Shown here: positions 5,629 through 62,802 of the stretch, one piece after another
Numbering within the stretch: position 1 is the stretch's first letter
Layout: each line of letters begins with the position of its first letter
NCBI GenBank assembly: GCA_951406725.2
Contig: OX597814.1
Coordinates: 110,236,001-110,300,000, forward strand
Direction of reading: 5' to 3'
DNA length: 64,000 nucleotides
Source of the DNA: Octopus vulgaris
Taxonomy: Eukaryota
Program-made: the position numbers and the translations under genes
Notes under the pieces: model-generated
The model's input: the letters and a program-made list of their open reading frames with translations, nothing else
Database searches by the model: none
Told to the model about the DNA's origin: nothing

Positions 5629-7386
5629 AATGGTAAGGCACCCGTTCCTGTCTGTCTTTCATACTTCAGCCTCTCAACATCTGACTCAAAGCTTCCTCCC
5701 TCAATAGAACCCCCTCTCCACTCTCATGGTATCTGGTCATGCAAATTACTTTGTTACCTCATGAGTGCTGATGTCACAAACACATGCACCCAGTACACTC
5801 TGTAAAGTGGTTAGCATTGGGGCAGGCATCCTGTCAAAGAAACTTTGCCAAAACACACACTCACTGGAGACCAGCATAATCTTCACGTTAGTCAGATCCT
5901 GTTGAAATGTCCAACCCATGCCAGCATGGAAGGCAGGTGTTATATGATGATAATGCTGATGATGATGAAACTGAGAAGAAATGAGTTTTAGCTAACATTT
6001 TAACAATATCATATTTCAAGATTTATTACCATATATTACACTCCAGGGAATATTTTTCTTTCTCACTGAAATGTAACATCCCCAGCTTGCAGTTAACTGT
6101 GATGAGATCTTTCTATTAACATTCGTTAATAAAGACACATGTTATTGCTGACAGCTAAATAATTTTTCCCATACATGTAATATATATCCTGCAAGAATTA
6201 TTGTACTTGTTAAGCTACTCAATAGCTATTTAAATATTATTCATAAAAGAATATTAACGATAGTTTTATGAAGTTTAATTTGTGTCAGCCAATGTCAGTT
6301 TAACCTCATGCGATTTCTCTATTTATTTACTCTCTATATTTTATTTTGCAAGAGCTAACTTTCTGCCTACTAAATCCTATGTCCTGTGAAAGAAATGAGA
6401 TTTTAATATAGTCTTACACCACAACTAACAGTTTCACCTTTTACCTAGTAATTTTACCCTTCATATTTTTGCATTAATATTTAGTTTTGCAGACAAGTTT
6501 AACCCTTTAGCATTTGGATAACTCTGTCAAATTTAATACCTATTAATTCCCATTGATCTTTCAGTATCTTGTAACTTTGAGATTTCTATGATATGACTGT
6601 GTACTTTTAGAATGACATTGTAGGGGCCAGATTTTGACATTTTGAACATAAAACAGGCAGAACATTTGAGCCAGATATCGCTGGTTTCAGTACAGATCAA
6701 ATGATGTAAATGGAACGTGGTGTAATCTAATCAAGGACAGTCCTACTAAATTCTTGTGATTTCAGACATTTGGCAATGAAGCATTTTGAAAATTTTGGAA
6801 CCAAGCTGCTATTAATCTAGTCATTAAATCTCTCTTTTTATTCTTTAGTCAATTTCACAGCCTTTTTTTCCTTTAACAAACTTCATAGTTTTCTTCTTTT
6901 TTTTTTTAACCTAGATCTTCGTCCTTCATTACTTCACAATTGCCATTTTAAGAAATGTTGTCTTTAAACATATCTCTTGTAGGGGGGGGGGGGTAAAGTT
7001 AAGTTCCTTTATTCATTTATTTAAACCAGCTATATCCAGCCAAAATATTCTTCCTGTTTAATGTTCAAATTGGCCTTGTCCACCTTGTCACACTTATCCT
7101 ACAATTTCACTCTAAAAATAATCACATAATCAGAATCTCAAAATTGCAAGATAATCCATGATTAATTCAAAGCAATGTAAATAAATGAGTAAGACATTTG
7201 ACAGAATAATTTGAATGCTAAAGGGTTAAATCAGAAGCCAGTTAAGGGGTCGGTATTGATCCCTGGAGTTCTCTGGGGTTTTCCAAGAGATCAATAAGCA
7301 CCTGAAACAATTCTAACATTAAGGATACTGAATTATTAACGAACTGAATCTGGAAGAGTTTTGGTAATTTAAGGTTTAAACTCTCT

Positions 7387-7575
7387 ACAGTTCTATATTT
7401 AAGAGTTGAGGAATTATATACATTATTTACATTTGACAGATATTTGTCCTCATCTTGTTTGTGTTAACACAACGTTTTGGTTGATATACACTCCAGCCTT
7501 CATCAGGTGTCTTGGGGAAATTTCAAACCTGGGTTCTCATTCCTAAGGTATTTTTCGATGTTATTCAGTGACCTG
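7387..7575 (-). mobile_element. Short hammerhead-bearing repeat, family H1 (Penelope-like, inferred)
   Basis: Homologous copies at about 8784-9090, 45806-45922 and 52532-52654; contains a hammerhead fold. Confidence 0.7.
7466..7511 (-). ncRNA. Minimal type I hammerhead ribozyme motif (C3:G8), decayed
   Basis: Minus strand reads GACAC-CUGAUGA-A-GGCUG-gagtgtatat-CAACC-AAA-ACGU-U-GUGUU. Helix I GACAC/GUGUU, palindromic helix III ACGU. G12>A and one helix II change relative to the 8826 copy. Confidence 0.75.
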
Positions 7576-7598
7576 AATAATAATAATAATTTTGATAA

Positions 7599-7682
<84 letters not shown>

Positions 7683-7684
<2 letters not shown>

Positions 7685-8070
7685 CGCAGGTGTGGCTGTG
7701 TGGTAAGAAGCTTGCTTCCCAACCACATGGTTCCAGCTTCAGTTCCACTGCAGGACATCTTGGGCAAGTGTCTGCTACTATAGGCTTTGGATGGAGTTGA
7801 TTTGGTAGATGGAAACTGTCATATATATATATATATATGTTTGTGTGTGTGTGAGTGTGTGTCTTTTTGTCTGTGTTTGTACCCCCACTATTGCTTGACA
7901 ACCAATGTTGGTGTGTTTATGTCCCTGTAACTTAGCGGTTCAGCAAAAGAGACTGATAGAATAAGTATTAGGCTTACAAAGAATAAATCTGGGATTGATT
8001 TCTCCGACTAAAAGCCTTTAAGGTACTCCAGTATGGCTGCAGTCAAATGACTGAAACAAGTAAAATAATA
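7683..8070 (+). mobile_element. CORE-type SINE, family B
   Basis: tRNA-like head ggcgcagg...ggttcagtccc, CORE-like cttgggcaagtg, internal TA/GT microsatellite, tail gactgaaacaagtaaaa. About 20 copies (approx. starts 1827, 4667, 19595, 22281, 23230, 23690, 41374, 42148, 48798, 49209, 51472, 53638, 60793). Confidence 0.85.
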
Positions 8071-8825
8071 AAACAATATTAAATTTGAAATTTATAAGAA
8101 GTTTCTAGACAGAGTACACTTCAATAATTGCTACAGCTATCGTTATTGGTCTGATAATTATTTCATTTGAGCACTTTCAACCTTTTTCTATTCTGAATAT
8201 CACAATCAGACAGTACTAGGAATGTTATCCCAGACAAATAATGAAGAATACCTGCTGATCATATATCTTTCTCAGCTAACTTACCTGTTAATGAAATGTG
8301 TTTCAGCTTCATACCTGTCAATCATATATGCCTCACCTGTCTCAACTACACTACCTGTCAATCCTATGTTGCAGCCAAACTACCTGTTCATCACATCTGT
8401 CTGGCTTTCATTACCTGTCCATCATGAATCTCTGCTACATTACCTGTTGCATTATTAATCCTTTTTGTTACCATATTTTCATTGAAAATTGTTTCAGTTA
8501 ATTTTGGAAATAACGAAGAATTTTGGATGTTTGGAACATAAATCAACCTGAAGCATTAGTTCCAAATTTTGACACAAGGCCAGCAATTTCAGGAAGGGGG
8601 TAAACCGTTTATATCGACACCAGCACATGACTGGTACTTATTTTATCAATCTGCAAAGGATGAAAGGCAAAGTTGGCCTCAATGGAATTTGAACCTAGAA
8701 CATAAAGATGGACAAAATACCACTAAGCATGCTAATGATTCTGTTTATTCACTGCCCTAAGGTTTGATAATGTTAATGGATTTATTAACAATGGACAGAT
8801 AGGTGTTCTCATCTGGTTTGTTGTT

Positions 8826-8868
8826 ACCACGTTTCGGCTGATGTATTCTCCAGCCTTCATCAGGTGTT
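8826..8868 (-). ncRNA. Hammerhead motif, family H1 copy 2
   Basis: AACAC-CUGAUGA-A-GGCUG-gagaauacau-CAGCC-GAAACGU-G-. Core and helix II intact; cleavage site and 3' helix I damaged. Confidence 0.7.
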
Positions 8869-9734
8869 CTGGTGAAATTTCAAACCCAACCCTTTATTTG
8901 ACTAATGGGGTAATCTGTTCTCATTCCTAAGGTATTCTCTTTTTTTTGCTGGTGTTATTTTGTTTAGCTTTGAGTCTCGACATCTCCACAGGAACGTTAG
9001 ATGGTTTGAAAGACGAGTTAGCTTCTGATAAAGTTTCTCTGTATGTCTCCATTGAAGTCTAATGTCAGCTCCGTGCCAATGTATTAATGGTATTAATGGA
9101 TTTCCTTAGGGATTTCTATATGTGTGGCCATTCCAATTTTAACTAAGCAATGTGGGCAAACTACAGCTAAAGTCTGAAGGGCTAACAATTTCAGAAGAGG
9201 GGGTTAAGTTGATTACATCAATCCCAGTGTTCAGCTGGTGTTTTGTTTTTCAGCCATGAAAGGATGAAAGCCAGTCGACCTTGGCGGAATATAAATCAAC
9301 ATAAAATATTGAGGGAAGGTTTTAATTTAGATAAGATTTAAAATGAGATGTTTGTTTCACGGAACAGATGCGATCTCAGATTAGAATCAGAAGATCTAAA
9401 GATGTTTGCAGCTGAAACATATCTCTGCTATTATCATCAAAGCGAATAACATTTAGTTTATATCATAGCCTCCTTTTTATTCTCTAAATTCTTCCGTTCC
9501 TTTCTGCCTGTTCTCTGGTTTTGCTGGCAGCCAACAATAGTTGCGTGATAACCCAGGTGTGTAGCTAATTTCTATATGGCTATAGAACTGACAGCGAGGT
9601 CAACCCATTGACATGTTGATGGGTGTCAAAGGTCAAAAACCAACATTTCTTTGCTTATTAACAGCACTGACTTTGTCGACTTAAACAGATGTTGCTGTTC
9701 AGAGGTGTATAAAATTTCATCCCTTCACTCTCAT

Positions 9735-10633: not shown

Positions 10634-10686
<53 letters not shown>

Positions 10687-10688
<2 letters not shown>

Positions 10689-10818
10689 AAAATGTGTTGC
10701 TGAAAATGCACTTAAATTTTAAAAACTCGTGAATGTTTAAAATACATATGTAAATAAATGTATTTTAAACATTCACGAGTTTTTGAAATTTAAGTGCATT
10801 TTCAGCAACACATTTTCC
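10687..10818. repeat. Inverted repeat, 61-bp arms, 10-nt spacer, (TA)n flanks
   Basis: 10687-10747 is the reverse complement of 10758-10818 with one mismatch. Confidence 0.95.
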
Positions 10819-11077
10819 TATATATTTTTTTCCTGCGTGGAGTCACCACTCCCTCTTTTGCTATATATGTATGTATTTATGTATGTATATATGATGGCGA
10901 TCTTTCTGCTTCTGCTGACCTTCATTTCCAATATTCTCTGAAAACGTGTCCGACGATGAAGAAATATTTCCTTGTTTGGAAATGGATGAGGATTGGCCAT
11001 AGGGAGGGCATCCAACTGTAGAATCTCTACCTGAACCAATTCTGTCTGACTAATATATATATATAATATCATTTAAT

Positions 11078-11202
11078 AAACACAATATATGTTTTTATGT
11101 GCTACTATTAGTTCCATGTGATGAGAGCATGCTGGGCAGCACATTCTTCAGGCACTGCCCACATAGAAGTAATAGTAGCACATAAAAACATATATTGTGT
11201 TT
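11078..11202. repeat. Inverted repeat, 43-bp arms, enclosing a hammerhead motif
   Basis: 11078-11120 versus 11160-11202, two mismatches. Confidence 0.9.
11099..11155 (-). ncRNA. Type I hammerhead motif, family H2 (C3:G8; A13>G)
   Basis: GUGC-CUGAAGA-AUGUG-(19 nt)-CACAU-GGA-ACUA-a-UAGU-A-GCAC. All three helices pair; GUA triplet. Confidence 0.65.
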
Positions 11203-11841
11203 CATCATCATCATCATTGTTTAACATCCGCTTTCCATGCTGGCATGGGTCGAACAGTTTACACTGAGAACTGGTAAGCCAGAGAGCTGCATCAGGTTCC
11301 AATCTGATCTGGCAAGCTTTCTACAGCTGGATGCCCTTCATAATGCCAACCACTCTGAGAGTGTAGTGGGTGCTTTTTATGTGCTGCCAATATGGGAGCC
11401 AGTCAGGCAGCACTAGCATCGCCACACTTGAATGGTGCTTTTTACATGCCACCAGCACAGGTGCCAGTCAAGCGGAACTGGCATCGGCCACGACTATGAT
11501 TTCACTAGACTCAACAGGTCTTCTCAAGCACAGTATAATACCCAATAATTGAAGGGTACTTTTAAACGGGTCGGTTATGCGACATCGGCATCAGCCACAG
11601 CTACAATCTCACTTTACTTGCCGGGTCTTCTCAAGCACAGCATATCTCCAAAGGTCTCAGTCGCTTGTCATTGCTTCTGTGAGGCCTAAAGTTTGAAGGT
11701 CGTGCTTCACCACCTCATCCCATGTCTTCCTGGGTCTACCTCTTCCACAGGTTCCCTCCACTGTTAGGGTGTGACACTTCTTATCTCTCACCAAATAGAG
11801 CACTTTTTTATTGATCTTACCATCATAGAGCGGTACACTAT

Positions 11842-11993
11842 ATATATAAAATATAAATTAGAGATAAAACCACTATTATGCAACTCAAACAGTTGTTTTT
11901 TTATATATTATTTGTTATTTATGTTTTGGTTTATGTCTATCACTGTTTGAATTGCATAATAGTGGTTTTATCTCTAATTTATATTTTATATAT
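11842..11993. repeat. Inverted repeat, 52-bp arms, part of a dispersed family
   Basis: 11842-11893 versus 11942-11993, one mismatch. A single-arm homolog lies at about 55950-56038. Confidence 0.9.
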
Positions 11994-12379
11994 TTATACT
12001 GTGAAATTTGATTTAATACTAAATTGAATTTTTCCCTGTAAGTTTGGAGTTATACTCCCTAATATTCTTCATCATCATCATCGTCATCATCATTGTTTAG
12101 CATCTGCTTTCCATGCTAGCATGGGTTGGACGGTTCATCTGGGGTCTGGGAAGCCAGAAGGCTGCACCAGGCCCAGTCTGATCTGGTAATGTTTCTACAG
12201 CTGGATGCCTTTCCTAATGCCAACCACTCGTGAGTGTAGAGGGTGCTTTTTACATGCCACTGGCACAGGTGCCAGACGAGGCTGGCAAACGGCCCTGATT
12301 GGATGGTGCATTTTACGTGCCACCGGCACGGGAAAAGTGTTAACAGGTTCTGGTGACGATTGAACTCACGACTTTCTGC

Positions 12380-15215: not shown

Positions 15216-15433
15216 ATTATATAAAAGGGCTTAGTAAAATAAATTACTTTGCCGCATACTGAACTCATTAGAAATAGCAGCTAAAAAAACTTTTTTAAAA
15301 CTATCTCCAATACTTAAAGAAAAGGTTTTCTTTAAGTATTGGAGATAGTTTTAAAAAAGTTTTTTTAGCTGCTATTTCTAATGAGTTCAGTATGCGGCAA
15401 AGTAATTTATTTTACTAAGCCCTTTTATATAAT
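15216..15433. repeat. Perfect palindrome, 108-bp arms, 2-nt spacer
   Basis: 15216-15323 versus 15326-15433; no mismatch seen. Confidence 0.95.
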
Positions 15434-20349: not shown

Positions 20350-20373
20350 ATTTAGATCAATATAAAATATAAA

Positions 20374-20924
20374 TTACAGAGATGTACTTGCATAGCAAGT
20401 GACTTGATCTGAGATCATGGGCTGAAAGAAAAAAAACTGCAGCAGGGAAGATGTTTGTAAGCCATTTAAGAACACACAAAAACCCGTTAGTTTCACTTCA
20501 ACATTTAAACCTTTCATTACTGTATTTATTTTGAGATGCTCTGTGTTTCTTTCAATTAATTTTAAATATAACAAAGAATTTAGTGAAATAACTTAATTAT
20601 CATTAAGCTAGTGTTAGGAACATAAATTGTGACTAAGGTTTGGTGGAAGATTTTAATTTAAAACTTTTGAAAACAAGACATTTGTACTACAGAGCCAGAG
20701 CTGGTTTTAGGTGGGTTGGTAATGAAAGGGTTAAACTTAATTTGTGTCAAAATATTTTCATAGCTTTGAAACCGTGACCTGTTCACTGACAAAACTTCGA
20801 AGTTTTGTCAGTGAACAGGTCACGGTTTCAAAGCTACAAACATATTTTGACACAAATTAAGTTTAAATGTTGAAGTGAAACCAACGGTTTTTTTGTGTGT
20901 TCTTAAATGGCTTACAAACATCTT
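20374..20924. mobile_element. Fold-back copy of family H5 with two opposed G3:C8 hammerhead motifs
   Basis: Palindrome centre at 20798/20799; homologous to 61883-62088; motifs at 20745-20793 (-) and 20804-20852 (+). Confidence 0.75.
20509..20730 (+). mobile_element. piggyBac-type MITE, family 1, in the left palindrome arm
   Basis: TTAA on both sides; the right arm has a single TTAA at the equivalent (empty) site. Confidence 0.9.
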
Positions 20925-21019
20925 ACACACTGAAATTAAATATAAAATTTATATTATAGATCCAGGGCTATTCCAGGCATGTTGGTATCAAAAGAGATGT
21001 GAATTTAAGCTAAGAGGAA

Positions 21020-33946: not shown

Positions 33947-34523
33947 TTAAACAGAGACTACTTTGATCTTCTTTTATTCTGGTGAAGCATTAAGCAAGAA
34001 TTTAAATGAAAAGAATATAATAATAGAATCGACAGAAATATGTAACAGAAAACACAATCTCTCAGACATTAAAACAAAATTGCTTATTTTTGATAAACTT
34101 CTTTTTAAAAAAATTAAATATATTTATTTTATAAAATTTATTTGTTGGTTGGTTATTTTATGCTGAGAACAGTGCAACCAAACCAGTCAAGTACTGGGTT
34201 TGATTTTATTAACTTGCCCTTCCCCTCAAAATTGTCAGTTCCATGCTAAAATTTGAAATCATCATTATTATTATTATTATTATTAAGGGTGGTGAGCTTG
34301 CAGTATCGTTAGCATGCTGGACAAAATACTTAACAGTATTTCACCCGTTAGTTCATTCTGAGTTCAAATTCTGCTGAGGTTGATTTTACCGTTCATCCTT
34401 TCGGGGTTGATAAAATAAGTACCAGTTAAACACTGGGGATCAATGTAATTGACTCATACCCTCTCCATAAAAATTGCTGCCCTTGTGGCAAAATTTGAAA
34501 CCATTATTATTATTATTATTATT

Positions 34524-36538
34524 ACCTGTGTCGGTGGCACATAAAAACACCATCCGAAGACCCGGCAAGACTAGTCAGGCCATAACCCATGGCCCCTACC
34601 TGGGACGTAGTCAGTCCACCTGTGCATACCTTCCTCCTTGTGATACTTGTGAAGGCCTGTTGAGGCAAGTGAAAATAAAAATAAAAATAAAATCAAAACA
34701 AATCAAAATAGATGAACATCAATGGAATTTGTATCTTTGTGGTACCAGTGCCGGTGGCACACAAGAGAAAACCATCCGAAAGTGGCCGTAGCCAGTACCG
34801 CATCGACTGGCCTCCGTGCTGTGGGCACATGACAAACACCATCCGATCGTGGCCGTTCGCCAGCCTCATCTAGCACCTGTGTCGGTGGCACATAAAAACA
34901 CCATCCGAAGACCCGGCAAGACTAGTCAGGCCATTACCCATGGCCCCTACCTGGGACGTAGTCAGTCCACCTGTGCATACCTTCCTTCTTGTGACACTTG
35001 TGAAGACCTGTTGAGGCAAGTGAAAATCAAAATCAAAACAAATCAAAATAGATGAACATCAATGGAATCTGTATCTTTGTGGTACCAGTGCCGGTGGCAC
35101 ACAAGAGAACCATCCGAACGTGGCCGTAGTCAGTTCCGCATCGACCGGCCTCCGTGCTGTGGGCATGTAACAAAAACCATCCGATCATGGCCATTCGCCA
35201 GCCTCATCTGGCACCTGTGTCGGTGGCACATAAAAACACCTTCCGAAGACCCGGCAAGACTAGTCAGTCCACCTGTGCATACCTTCCTTCTTGTGACACT
35301 TGTGAAGACCTGTTGAGGCAAGTGAAAATCAAATCAAATCAAATCAAAATAGATGAACATCAATGGAATTTGTATCTTTGTGGTACCAGTGCCTGTGGCA
35401 CACAAGAAATCCATCCGAACGTGGCCGTAGTCAGTACCGCATCGACTGGCCATCGTGCTGTGGGCACATAACAAACACCATCCGATCGTGGCCGTTCGCC
35501 AGCCTCATCTGGCACCTGTGTCGGTGGCACATAAAAACACCATCCGAAGACCCGGCAAGACTAGTCAGGCCATATCCCATGGCCCCTACCTGGGACGTAG
35601 TCAGTCCACCTGTGCATACCTTCCTCCTTGTGATACTTGTGAAGGCCTGTTGAGGCAAGTGAAAATCAAAATGAAATCAAAACAAATCAAATCAAAACAA
35701 ATCAAAATAGATGAACATTAATGGAATTGTATCTTGTGGTACCAGTGCCGGTGGCACACAAGAAAACCATCCGAACGTGGCCGTAGCCAGTACCGCACCG
35801 ACTGGCCTCCGTGCTGTGGGCACGTAACAAACACCATCCGATTGTGGCCGTTCGCCAGCCTCATCTGGCACCTGTGTCGGTGGCACATAAAAACACCATC
35901 CGAAGACCTGGCAAGACTAGTCAGGCCATAACCTGTGGCCCCTACCTGGGACGTAGTCAGTCCACCTGTGCATACCTTCCTTCTTGTGACACTTGTGAAG
36001 ACCTGTTGAGGCAAGTGAAAATCAAATCAAATCAAAACAAATCAAAATAGATGAACATCAATGGAATTTGTATCTTTGTGGTACCAGTGCCGGTGGCACG
36101 TGGCACACAAGAAAACCATCCGAACGTGGCCGTAGCCAGTACCGCATCGACTGGCCTCCGTGCTGTGGGCACGTAACAAACACCATCCGATCGTGGCCGT
36201 TTGCCAGCCTCATCTGGCACCTGTGTCGGTGGCACATAAAAACACCATCCGAGCGTGGCCGTCTGCCAGCCTCGTCTGGTACCTGTGTCGGTGGCACATA
36301 AAAAACACCATCCGAGCGTGGCCGTTTGCCAGCCTCGTCTGGCACCTGTGTTGGTGGCACATAAAATCACCCACTACACTCTCGGAGTGGTTGGCGTTAG
36401 GAAGGGCATCCAGTTGTAGAAACACTGCCAGATCTGACTGGACTGGTGCAGCTTTCGGGCTCCCCAGACCCCAGTTGAACCGTCCAACCCATGCTAGCAT
36501 TGAAAGCGGACGTTAAATGATGATGATGATGATGATGA
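34524..36538 (+). repeat. Five tandem ~300-356-bp units of a family D-related 3' region plus one terminal tail
   Basis: Unit starts at 34524, 34875, 35213, 35514 and 35870; ~62-bp subrepeats from 36219, then a (GAT)n tail. Confidence 0.9.
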
Positions 36539-45605: not shown

Positions 45606-46130
45606 CAAAGGTGGGCACCGTTAATTGCAAAGTTAACTTTGTTAACTGTTAATCCATTAACCAAAAAGTTAACTTCGATAACTGTTAATCAGTTGATTTT
45701 TTAAAAATGTAACGGAAGTTATCGATAAACCATTAATGTTAATTTTTATTATAGAAAAAAAACAACAAAAATAGCAGTTTTTACTCTAAAACCACCTAAA
45801 AACATACAGTTCTATATTTAAGAGATGAGGAATTATGTGAATTATTTACATTTGATGGATATTTGTCCACATCTTGTCTGTTGTTAAAATGTTTCGGCTG
45901 ATGTATCCTCCAGCCTTCATCACTTTAAAAAGTACCAAAACTGTAAAATTCGTTAACTTCAATTGAACTGAAGATAACTTAAATTGACTTGAGTTAACGG
46001 AACTTAAATGTAACTGAAGTAAATTAGTCCAATAATGATTTCCAAAGTTAACTTAGAAGTTAAATCATCACGAAAATGTTAACTTCGTTAGTTAACGATT
46101 AATGGATTAATGGTTTGGTGCGCAGGTTTG
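45606..46130. mobile_element. hAT-like element rich in gttaac motifs
   Basis: Exact 8-bp TSD gtaaagga (45598-45605 and 46131-46138); imperfect 14-bp TIR. Confidence 0.7.
45806..45922 (-). mobile_element. Family H1 fragment truncated inside the hammerhead core
   Basis: UGAUGA-A-GGCUG...CAGCC-GAAAC retained (45890-45922); downstream sequence matches 7387-7465. Confidence 0.75.
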
Positions 46131-51045: not shown

Positions 51046-52531
51046 TCCTCTTATCTTCTGTCTGAACTGAAACTCATAAACTTCTGGACTAAAATAATGA
51101 ACTTATTTCACAACTACCAACTTCATCACTCAGGAATCCTGGCCACTGCTGACGTAGACCCCCCACTAAACACACACACACTCACACACACCTCCACTGC
51201 TGCTGAATATTGGAACATTACTAGAATGGAATCCAGGGTTCACCTACATAGAACAACATTCCTCTTCTTGTCTGTAACTTAATGAAATCATGGCTGTAAC
51301 AATGACAACGAAGGTGATATTGGGATAAAAGTTTGGTTTATATAACATCCTACATTCATCCACCCTGTTTCTTGGGGAACGAATGGAGGTAAAGCATGCC
51401 ATCCATGACCTTCATGCTTATAGGGATGTGTAGGATTCCCTTATAAAATGTGATCTTTCCTTTATTTATGAGGTGCAGGTGTGGCTGTGTGGTTTAAAAG
51501 TTAGCTTCCCAACCACATGGCTCTTGGTTCAGTCCTTCTGCATGCCACCTTGGAGAAAGTGACTTCTACCAAGCCCTGGGCCAATCGTAACAATCAAAGC
51601 ATTGTGAGTAGATTTGGTAGATGGAAACTGAAAGAAGCCCATTGTTTCTGTGTGTGTGTGTGTGCGCACATATTGTGTGTGTCAATCCTTGCTTTGACAT
51701 CTTGTGATAATTGGAAACAAGCTTACTGTTATAAAAGTGGTGTCTTTCATTTCTGAACATCCATGAAACATGTCTAACCATGTGGAACTATTACTTTTCT
51801 TGAAAACAGATTAGGGTTAATGACAGGAAGGACATCCAGCCATAGAAATACTGCCTCTACAAATTCTGTCTGACATATGCAAGCAGGAAAAAGTGGACAT
51901 TAAAATAATAAGAATACATTTTGAGGGAACTTTAACTGCTATTTCTAGTAGTTTGAATGGCTACTTCCAGACACCATGGTTGGAGGCTTATTATGGATAA
52001 TAGTGAAGACTTATTTATTAGTGTGGTATATCAAATGTTTAATTATAAACATTCAGATCAAGTCTCAGGTCAACTTATATCTTGATCGGCTGAGGCCCAC
52101 AGCCTGACTGAGATGCTCTGAAACCTGTCTCGTTGATGGGTGAGGGCAAAAGAGAACCAGCCACTGGATGCATTGTATCTATTTTTCTTCTCTCGCAATG
52201 TGTGTAGTTCCAAATGAGGTCAAACGAGGAAATGTAGTACTTATAAATGTCTTGGGCTCTCAGCCCCTCTTTATGGGGTCAATAGGTGTAGGTGTAGTGT
52301 CATAAGGTGGTGAGCTGGCAGAAGCATTAGCACACCAGGTGAAATGCTAAGCAGTATTTCGTCTGCTATGTTCTGAGTTCAAATTCTGCCGAGGTCGACT
52401 TTGCCTTTCATCTTTTGGGGTTGCTTAAATAAGTACCAGTTACGTACTGGGGTTGATGTAACCGACTCAATCTCTTAGTCTGTCTTTGTTTAGCCCCCTA
52501 TGAGCAATAAAGAAATAAGGAAATAGGTAAT

Positions 52532-52654
52532 ACAGTTCTATATTTAAGAGATGAGGAATTATGTACATTATTTACATTTGACAGATATTTATCCTCATTT
52601 TGTTTGTTGTTAACAACAAACAAGATGAGGACAAATATCGTCAAATGTAAATAA
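52532..52654 (-). mobile_element. Family H1 3' segment with snap-back palindrome
   Basis: Arms 52568-52611 and 52612-52654 centred on GTT|AAC. Confidence 0.85.
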
Positions 52655-52924
52655 CATAAATAACGAAGAAAATAGGTGTAGTGACATGACATACAAGGTG
52701 TCTTGTGCACATTTGGTTCTTCCAAATGAGAGAAGGTTAGATAAGACACATAGAAAGGGTGAGGGGAAAGAAGAATTGGCCCCCAGTACTATACTGGTAC
52801 TTTATTTGTTGAGCCCTGAATGGTAAAGTTAACCTCAGTAGGATTTCAACTCAGGGCATAGAAAGCTGAAATGATTGCCACAAAACAATCTGTCTGATAA
52901 ACTAAACACTGCCGGTCACCTACC

Positions 52925-55873: not shown

Positions 55874-58261
55874 CATAATTTTTTTACTTATTATATATTG
55901 ATTATTCATTTTTATACTTTTTGAGACCTAGTTATGTTTTATAAAATATATTTTATTTGTTATTTATGTTTTGGTTTATATCTATCATTGTTTGAGTTGC
56001 ATAATAGTGATTTTATCTCTAATTTATATTTTACATATATATATATACATATATGACATGTAAAAAGTGCCACTTGAGCGTGGTTGTTGCCAGTGTCGCC
56101 AGACTGGCTCCTGTACCAGTGGCACATAAAAAGCACCATTCAAGCATGGTTGATGCTAGTACTACTTGACTGGCACATAAAAAGCACCCATTACACTCTC
56201 AAGAGTGGTTGGCGTTAGGAAAGGCATCCTTGCCAGATCAGATTGAAGTCTGGTGCAGCCTTCTGGCTTGCCAGCCCACTGTCAAACCGTCAAACCCATG
56301 CCAGCATGGAAAACGGATGTTAAACGATAACGATGATGATGATGATATAGGTGTGGCTGTGTGGTGTGAAATTTACTTCCCAATCATATGTTTTTAGGTT
56401 CAGTCCCACCATGTGGCACCTTGAGCAAGTGTCTTCTACTATAGCCCCAGGTTGACTAAACTGACCGTTGCTTTATTTCAGCCACCCTGAAAGACAAAGT
56501 TGACCTCAGCAGATTTTAGGCTCACACTGTAAATAATTAGAACAAATGGTGCAAGGCATTATCTATGACACTGTAACAATTCTGCCAGCTTGCCACCTTG
56601 GTGGTGGTGGTGGTGGTGGTGGTAGTAGTAGTAGTAGATGGTGAAGCTTGATTTTTCGAACTTTGAGCCTCAGAGAGGCAATGACTGGTGACCAAGACCT
56701 TAAGCAATGTGCTGTACTTGAGAAGACCCATCAAGACAAGTGAAATCGTAGTTGTGGTTGATGCAGGTGTCACATAACAGGTAGCATGTAAAAAGCACCT
56801 TGTGAGCATTGGGCTTCACGGAGGCAAAGTGGCTGATGTTGGTGGCATGTGAAATGCTCCTTTCAAGTGTTGAGTCTCATGGAGGCAATGACAAATGACC
56901 AAGACCTTTAGCATTATGTCATGCTTGAGAAGAAGACCCTTCAAACCAAGTAAAATCACAGTTGTGGCAGATACCAATGTCATGCAAATGGCAACCATGC
57001 CAGTGGCACATAAAAGCACCCATCACACTCTTGAAATAGTTGGCATTAGGATGCCAAATCAGACTGGAGTTTGGAGCAGCCTTCCAGCATGTCAGCCCTG
57101 GTCAAACCATCTAACCCATGCCAACACAGACAACAGATGTTAAATAATGATGATGATGATGATGAATAATGCAACTTTTTCTGCTGCACTCAAAACCAGC
57201 TTGAGATCAAACAGTTTAAATATTTTTTTATTTCTTTATTGCCCACCAAGTGCTAAACAGAGGGGACAAACAAAAACAGGTAAAGGGATTAAGTCGATTA
57301 CATCAGCCCAGTGTGTAACTGGTACTTAATTTATCAACCCCCGAAAGGATGAAAGTCAAAGTTGACCTCGGTGGAATTTGAACTCAGAATGTCATGGCAG
57401 ACGAAATACCGCTTAGCATTTCGCCCGGCGTGCTAACGTTTCTGCCAGCTTGCCACCTTTAAACAGTTTGAATATTGATTACAAGCTGAAATCAATCAGA
57501 TTGAAAAAGGTAACCACTATTAGATGTGAAGAAACAAATACATAATAACAATAATACTAATAATCCTTCCTGTTGTCAGCACAAGGCCTGAAATTTTGGG
57601 GGGAGGGGGCTAGTCACTGCCATTGCCCCAGCACTGAAGTAAAGCAAAGTTGATCTTGGTAGAATCTGAACTCAGAACGTACAGAGCCAGAAGAAATGCC
57701 CCTAAACATTTGGTTCAACAGGATTTGGTCTCAAGGCTCCAGTTTCATCCTTGACATGGTTTCTGTGGCTGGATGTCCTTCTAATGCCAACCACTTTACA
57801 GTGTGTACTGGATGCTACCAGTATTGATGAGGTTGCCAGGGGACTTACAAGACAGGGGAACTGAGAGAGAAAAAGGAAAAAGGTATTTGAGAGGGGGAGA
57901 TGACTTTATACTGGATGTTGGAAGGTGAAAGTAAGATAAAGGAACAGGCGTTGGTGTCTTGCTATTGAGGAGATACATGACTACCCTACATTATGTATAG
58001 AGGTGGGTGGGAGTAGTTAGGAAGGAGACAAGGTAGGGATGGAATGCGAGAGCAAACTCTCAATGTAAGCATGAAGGAGGATCTGGACAGTGGGTCATAG
58101 AGAGTGGATGCTTTGATAGTGTGTAAAGATGGGGTGAGTAACAGGCAGTCAAAGATGGGGTTGAAGGTGAATGTGGAGAGCAATGAACTAGAGTGGAGGT
58201 GCAGTTGAGGGAAAAACCAATATAAAGGGGTGTAGAGTGATATATATATATATATATATAT

Positions 58262-61882: not shown

Positions 61883-62088
61883 CAATACAGCACGGACTTT
61901 GTCAGTGAACAGGTCGCGGATTTTAGCGACGAAAATATTTTGACAAATTAAACTTAAATGTTGGAGTGAACTGAACGGCTTTTGTGTGTTTCTTAAATGG
62001 CTTATAAACACCTTCCACGCTGCAATTGTTTTCGTTTCAGCACACGATCTCAGATCAAATTACTTGCTATGCGAGTACATCTCCGTAA
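61883..62088 (+). mobile_element. Short hammerhead-bearing repeat, family H5
   Basis: Homologous to both arms of 20374-20924; (TA)n on both sides. Confidence 0.75.
61898..61947 (+). ncRNA. Minimal type I hammerhead motif with G3:C8 core swap
   Basis: UUUGUCA-GUGAACA-G-GUCGC-ggauuuua-GCGAC-GAA-AAUAUU-U-UGACAAA. Perfect 7-bp helix I, 5-bp helix II, palindromic helix III. Confidence 0.75.
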
Positions 62089-62099
62089 ATATATATATA

Positions 62100-62654: not shown

Positions 62655-62802
62655 ATATTATTAGTGAATTGAAGAAATGGAGTTGAACGAAGATTGAACA
62701 GAAATCGTTTTATTGCATAAAACGATTTCTGTTCAACGATTGCATAAAACGATTTCTGTTCAATCTTCATTCAACTCCATTTCTTCAATTCACTAATAAT
62801 AT
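62655..62802. repeat. Inverted repeat, 59-bp arms, with a 27-bp direct duplication at the centre
   Basis: 62655-62713 versus 62744-62802, one mismatch. Confidence 0.9.

Follow-up and report, generated by a model that had tools for sequence, protein, structure and literature searches.

The window, a 64,000-nt stretch of the Octopus vulgaris genome, carries at 52531-52654 a palindrome made of two pieces of a repeat, H1, that lie head to head and overlap on the self-complementary 8-mer TGTTAACA (52608-52615). When the window was searched with its H1 copy at 7386-7590 (minus strand; hereafter the 7466 copy, our reference), a minus-strand match was found at 52531-52615 (reference 7469-7386; 94% over 85 nt) and a plus-strand match at 52608-52663 (91% over 57 nt), both far above chance with E-values of 1e-15 to 1e-31 within the window. 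The turn is centred at 52611/52612 and has zero spacer. These opposite-strand matches bear out an earlier, sequence-only reading in which a piece of H1 lacking its hammerhead folds back at this point; the direct arm begins at 52531 rather than 52532.

The direct arm (52531-52615, minus strand) runs from +2 of the predicted ribozyme cleavage product to a tailed 3' end at reference position 7386, and its terminal 34 nt (52531-52564, minus strand) form an optional tail aligning to reference 7386-7419. The inverted arm (52608-52654, plus strand) is tail-less: it ends at reference 7423, so that 3 nt separate it from the 7420 end found in the H1 family. The resulting 124-bp insert lies entirely 3' of the hammerhead, and neither arm has hammerhead sequence. 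The crossover can be placed only within the shared 8-mer, at +2 to +9 from the predicted cut. The +1 G is absent from both arms, each of which stops exactly 1 nt before the cut.

A 22-bp stretch located 2 nt before the direct arm (52507-52528, plus strand) is repeated 1 nt after the inverted arm (52656-52677, plus strand) with 18/22 ungapped identity. Of 1500 random window flanks, one scored as well as this registered 22-mer duplication, and so did one of 1500 shuffles. An exact 8-mer by itself was rejected as evidence of target-site duplication, as 719 of 5000 shuffles do as well. Beneath the left copy is another common repeat (52300-52522) with many relatives in the window, and we interpret the 22-bp repeat as a target-site duplication, now decayed, lying in the A-rich tail of this host repeat. 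The two arms differ at 3 of 40 positions: the direct arm carries two substitutions and the inverted arm a single deletion. Because the arms have diverged and the decayed 22-bp duplication frames them, the palindrome is, judging from its sequence, one real, old head-to-head insertion and no read artefact.

Four H1-related loci were found in the window with the 7466 copy as query: 7386-7565, 8782-8936, 45805-45922 and the 52531-52663 locus. All four are solitary. The reference itself consists of a tail, a hammerhead core at about 7508-7471 in which G12 is broken, and a 5' inversion of its own, which turns at 7565/7566, some 95 nt 5' of the cut, and leaves a piece of the upstream head inverted at 7566-7590. 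In reads and contigs this inversion is supported by joints of 7554, 7562 and 7565 to 7589/7590 on opposite strands, as well as by loose ends. It involves the head and an (AAT)n run, duplicates nothing, and is like twin priming on uncut RNA. The copy at 45805-45922 (minus strand) has a tail and no inversion, and its 5' end falls within the hammerhead core, some 30 nt 5' of the cut position. The remaining locus (8782-9075, minus strand; the 8863 copy) is a divergent relative with a hammerhead core and stem II, preceded by a fragment of the N-terminus of a Penelope-type ORF. Three of the four copies retain sequence 5' of the cut position and end elsewhere. Around the cleavage triplet, the 8863 and 45922 copies each lack 3 nt relative to the 7466 copy, and losses of 1-3 nt at 7468-7473 occur in a few percent of reads.

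For comparisons across the family, we aligned to the 7466 copy two sets of DNA contigs (29,211 and 23,013 contigs) and two raw RNA runs bearing another species label (8,281 and 6,791 reads, or roughly 6% of each run), and considered the best 15 of 118 joints and the best 24 of 963 loose ends. The 7466 stretch, whole or in part, is present in 21 of the 24 sequencing runs listed; no run listed as containing it is catalogued as RNA. Among the loose ends listed from reads and contigs, the 3' ends of H1 cluster at 7386 and at 7413/7419/7420, and in the two RNA runs depth across the intervening 34 nt is 0.50 and 0.56 of that of the body. We take this segment to be the optional tail of a Penelope element.

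The hammerhead of the 7466 copy reads CTGATGA, stem II, AAAAC GTT, with a predicted cut after GUU, between 7471 and 7470. The palindrome centre lies between 7466 and 7465, which confirms that the turn is 5 nt from the predicted cut. The core of this copy is broken: it has AAAA in place of GAAA, and at 7461 it lacks one base that most reads have. In the read majority GAAA and the stem II pair are restored and the extra base at 7461 is present. The H1 family accordingly has an intact minimal hammerhead of the type known from metazoan Penelope-like elements (PLEs), and with GAAA and stem II intact in most reads the predicted cut position holds for the family. The core with stem II also occurs in the 8863 copy and is absent from the 52612 insert. 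Rfam gave no match at gathering score in the window, and none of its 18 matches at E ≤ 10 in the region 7300-9100 was a hammerhead.

As in the minimal type I hammerheads of metazoan PLEs described in the accessible text of PMC4209133, helix I is short, an extra base precedes G10.1-C11.1, and a palindromic 15.2-16.2 occurs without loop 3; because of the last feature, the H1 hammerhead is predicted to act as a dimer. Minimal hammerheads cleave poorly in vitro according to that source. H1 differs from them in that its cut triplet is GUU and its activity is only predicted.

At the other end of the repeat, loose ends behind 7562 continue through (AAT)n into a head (788 and 593 reads, among the loose ends listed). 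Loose ends before 7566 (472 reads, agreement 0.87, again among those listed) contain GTTCGATTCC, a word that we take to be B-box-like. No tRNA gene was found in the window, and the H1 head is absent from it. H1 probably carries a tRNA-like head. Its make-up looks like that of a SINE with a tRNA head and, as its 3' part, a Penelope pLTR bearing the hammerhead and the optional tail; such a SINE is likely mobilised by a Penelope-type enzyme.

The fragment upstream of the 8863 relative (8941-9075, minus strand) matched nine proteins at E ≤ 0.001 among 1.84 billion. The matched proteins are unnamed; eight of the nine align on the fragment, and P0001 was left out of the alignment. One of them, P0009, carries KGLNF, which is GxKF-like, and DKG; PMC8557442 names motifs of this type for PLE proteins. 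Another, P0003, matches at its start the hammerhead-spanning frame (13/23, pairwise E 3e-05), an arrangement resembling the Poseidon element of Anolis, the ORF of which begins at stem II (PMC11167929). With an ORF N-terminus lying directly upstream of a pLTR-hammerhead relative, this locus is likely an internally deleted element. The idea that the upstream piece is a GIY-YIG end was rejected, as the fragment matches the N-terminal region. Pfam gave nothing useful for the frames upstream of the 8863 copy or for seven of the nine matched proteins, its matches on P0001 were dismissed as repeat noise, and word-index protein searches gave no matches. Pattern scans of metagenome contigs and of viral contigs also returned nothing. 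The window as a whole is repeat-rich animal-type DNA, its repeat types look octopus-like, and it has no convincing protein gene among its 49 long frames. By eye, none of these 49 stop-to-stop ORFs of at least 120 aa has the RT and GIY-YIG of an autonomous element. Given the minimal hammerhead, the optional tail and the kinship of the 8863 ORF fragment, we consider H1 to be a high-copy non-autonomous Penelope-type element.

The architecture of the insert is that of canonical PLE insertions. A typical one has an inverted 5'-truncated copy and a tail on one end only (PMC8557442), and palindromes at inverted junctions of rotifer Penelopes were reported in 2013 and put down to self-priming (PMC3846280). 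The 52531-52654 insert shares with canonical PLEs the head-to-head inverted copy and palindromic overlap (15 bp in rotifer Pen2a; PMC8557442 Fig. 2; PMC3846280), a tail of 30-40 nt at one end, a target-site duplication and an AT-rich target. It differs from them in size and content: the target-site duplication is 8-10 bp in the rotifer cases and 22 bp here, and the insert has no ORF. The pLTR of canonical PLEs contains the hammerhead, as does the H1 family, whereas the 124-bp insert lies wholly 3' of it. We found no relation between junction and ribozyme cut in the accessible text of either paper. Both the head-to-head architecture and the idea of self-priming are already in print there.

Three further systems bear comparison. 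Poseidon of Anolis carolinensis cuts and extends both target strands in vitro, with starts at two sites, one on either side of the tail (PMC11167929), and H1 likewise has two 3' ends around its tail. Poseidon and H1 also have in common an ATG at the start of hammerhead stem II and AC-rich sequence after the ribozyme. Unlike the non-autonomous H1, Poseidon is autonomous; it was studied in vitro, where its ribozyme is dispensable, and we found no analysis of inverted junctions in the accessible text (PMC11167929). In R2-mediated snap-back 5' junctions the 3' end of the cDNA primes inverted synthesis, often after full-length copying of ribozyme-trimmed RNA (PMC11371274; ribozyme-set 5' ends are background in PMC11331408). 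These junctions involve the R2 protein, an HDV-type ribozyme and cultured cells, and priming is on an internal cDNA position, in contrast to the zero-loop turn at 52611/52612. Non-LTR retrozymes are, like H1, non-coding PLE derivatives with type I hammerheads, but they are defined as tandem arrays (bioRxiv 10.64898/2026.07.22.740005), whereas the H1 copies of the window are dispersed and have an apparent tRNA-like head. We rejected a retrozyme array at this locus, all four copies being solitary and without tandem units. A MITE was also rejected; the arms are unequal (85 and 47 nt), the duplication is of 22 bp, and there are linear siblings.

The 52531-52654 insert is a real, well-explained Penelope-type insertion. 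We assign a probability of about 0.5 to an origin from two cDNAs of uncut RNA, started at opposite nicks of a staggered cut and annealed on TGTTAACA. A Penelope-type RT-endonuclease acting in trans would nick both target strands about 22 bp apart; one nick would prime at the tailed 3' end and the other near the tail-less end. Both cDNAs would reach or pass the palindrome, stopping randomly or pausing at the hammerhead structure, and would then pair over 8 bp, lose their flaps and have their gaps filled in. With cDNAs annealing on a native palindrome, ribozyme cutting would not be needed; the turn would fall near the cut because the palindrome overlaps the 3' strand of hammerhead helix I. TGTTAACA is one of only two palindromes of at least 8 nt in reference 7386-7565, the second being GAAATTTC, upstream of the ribozyme. 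A symmetric microhomology turn therefore has few alternative sites, and microhomology alone favours TGTTAACA.

Joining of two cDNAs is favoured over fold-back because pairing of two cDNA ends yields -8.0 kcal/mol and the zero-loop single-strand hairpin only -0.8 kcal/mol (37 °C), and because of the tail-less end and the target-site duplication. The best single-strand fold at 18 °C is in a different register. The arm ends themselves count for two primers, the direct arm ending at 7386 and the inverted arm no more than 3 nt from a family 3' end. The support from the tail-less end is modest, since about 14 of 77 positions would place an arbitrary arm end within 3 nt of a tail-less end. Against two primers on uncut RNA, both cDNAs must stop near the same place, which a cut RNA end explains neatly, and duplicating the same segment would require a second RNA or reuse of one.

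The sequence-only reading had suggested that the turn would be genomic evidence of cleavage in vivo. This could not be upheld: TGTTAACA is native to H1 by the loose-end majority of reads, any cDNA passing it could anneal there and have its flap trimmed, and the turn alone is therefore no proof of cleavage. The accompanying proposal, that cDNA of a self-cleaved RNA had primed itself on GTTAAC, survives in part. The junction is exactly what a cDNA stopping at or just before the cut leaves after losing one 3' base, but the hairpin is weak, and an inverted arm that stops near the tail-less 3' end of an insert framed by a target-site duplication fits two nicks better. A sharp peak of breakpoints at +0 to +8 across copies had been named as support for it. 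One of the four window copies breaks there, and no sharp peak at the cut appears among the best 15 of 118 joints and the best 24 of 963 loose ends.

In the two RNA runs, which sample transcribed copies under another species label against a divergent reference and are blunt in this respect, read depth 5' of the cut reaches 71% and 75% of that of the 3' body. Depth is lost at 5.3% and 4.1% per 10 nt across the cut, at 7.8% and 9.2% further upstream and at 1.6% and 2.8% in the 3' body, with no excess drop across the cut. Above the detection threshold, RNA ends do not pile up at the cut or elsewhere in these cDNA-library runs, in which both mates are equal on both strands. Among the best 15 of 118 joints, the symmetric fold-back at 7462-7469 is absent, short reads being prone to under-recover palindromes. 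The best-supported genuine head-to-head joint in that set, 7444/7462 (131 and 111 RNA reads and one contig), is asymmetric, with a short side of 25 nt that suits an arm stopping at 7420. Two of the three genuine opposite-strand joints in the set end at 7462, where the missing base of the reference forces clips, and four further opposite-strand rows are the reference's own inverted head. One contig among the best 12 of 65 rows carries an arm to exactly +1 (7462 plus 9 letters, then 7426). The contig data cannot exclude fold-backs, since perfect palindromes tend to interrupt graph assembly.

Several alternatives have to be set against two cDNAs from uncut RNA. The same two-primer geometry could have operated on hammerhead-cut RNA, with both cDNAs running off at +1, pairing over TGTTAACA and losing one mismatched 3' base each. 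The cut would give both cDNAs an identical self-complementary end, the arms do stop 1 nt before it, most reads have an intact minimal hammerhead, and the single contig reaching +1 (best 12 of 65) is of the expected kind. We nevertheless regard this as unlikely, given the lack of excess depth loss and of an RNA end pile-up, the absence of the exact fold-back from the best 15 of 118 joints, the poor in vitro cutting of minimal hammerheads (PMC4209133) and the lack of RNA-seq ends at the Poseidon ribozyme cut in Anolis (PMC11167929). These depth, end and joint results weigh equally against a single cDNA that was extended as far as the cut end, turned back on itself at GTTAAC, used 47 nt of its own sequence as template and then joined the second nick. 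The junction sequence is compatible with such an event, and R2 transgene snap-back often follows full-length cDNA (PMC11371274), but the hairpin is worth only -0.8 kcal/mol at 37 °C and gives way to another register at 18 °C, and fold-back itself leaves the stop near the tail-less end unexplained; we think it improbable.

Only marginally better placed is a reading in which uncut nucleic acid primed itself at the palindrome and the tail-less end came from endonuclease resolution of an intermediate. For rotifer Penelopes, self-priming was put forward because inverted junctions there have palindromes (PMC3846280), and the tail has been attributed to endonuclease resolution (PMC8557442), but the hairpin is again weak, and later in vitro work maps the tail ends to RT start sites (PMC11167929). 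Least credible by far is a later rearrangement at the palindrome, or a fold-back of reads or assembly, rather than transposition. Short palindromes are prone to such events and the evidence for the locus is assembly sequence; against this, the arms bear separate changes and a target duplication abuts both ends. Taken over all its forms, cleavage of the template by the hammerhead is a doubtful contributor to the 52612 junction, and we treat it as a testable lead rather than a result.

PMC8557442 describes the role of the hammerhead in Penelope elements that bear an endonuclease as unclear. In the open literature searched, with subscription papers and repeat databases mostly outside it, we found no link between an inverted junction and a hammerhead cut. 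Nor did we find a tRNA-headed hammerhead SINE of octopus in that literature, which included the accessible text of PMC13282606, PMC10886601, PMC6962438 and bioRxiv 10.64898/2026.07.22.740005. The motifs of the H1 family were found neither in paper text nor in the supplement of PMC8557442, and the supplements of PMC3846280 and PMC13282606 contain nothing on hammerheads. This very high-copy repeat has one native palindrome just past the cut and another 5' of the ribozyme, which gives it a built-in control. An octopus SINE paper of 1994 may describe the H1 family. One copy is insufficient, but H1 copies could show whether cut RNA ever serves as template and how inverted pLTRs arise. Only tentatively do we suggest that a minority of H1 copies came from hammerhead-cut RNA, with two run-off cDNAs pairing through the palindrome just past the cut, so that the ribozyme would set the head-to-head junction of Penelope insertions; H1 would also be a tRNA-headed SINE driven by a Penelope-type enzyme. 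If the cut-RNA reading is true, the many H1 copies would be a fossil record of ribozyme activity in vivo.

The window contains six further fold-backs with arms of at least 40 nt and spacers of 0 to 48 nt, none of which matches H1. A relaxed scan gave hammerhead-like cores with a stem at five places, two of them H1 copies and none at the other turns. Self-priming after cleavage, which had been offered as a mechanism for the palindromes of the window, is not supported for these: they belong to unrelated repeats, their junctions differ, and no hammerhead core lies next to the turns. Two of the six have linear siblings and unequal outer ends, which makes a general Penelope-type origin plausible. 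One, at 20367-20937 (sibling at 61898-62096), is a zero-spacer palindrome of another family, the longer arm of which is interrupted by another repeat. Its arms end about 70 nt apart and the match to the linear sibling starts 5 nt after the turn, so that the head may be a fixed point. The other, at 11839-11998 (sibling at 55947-56043), has head-to-head arms of about 52 and 100 nt that end in TA repeats, and its sibling starts close to where the long arm starts. At 15216-15433, beside (TA)n, is a fold-back with perfect arms of 108 bp and a spacer of 2 nt; it looks far younger than its neighbours and could be recent or an artefact. More fold-backs stand next to TA repeats at 62655-62802, 10680-10825 and 11078-11202, and the one at 62713 has a templated duplication at its centre. 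A tandem unit of about 350 nt is present in six copies at 34388-36382.
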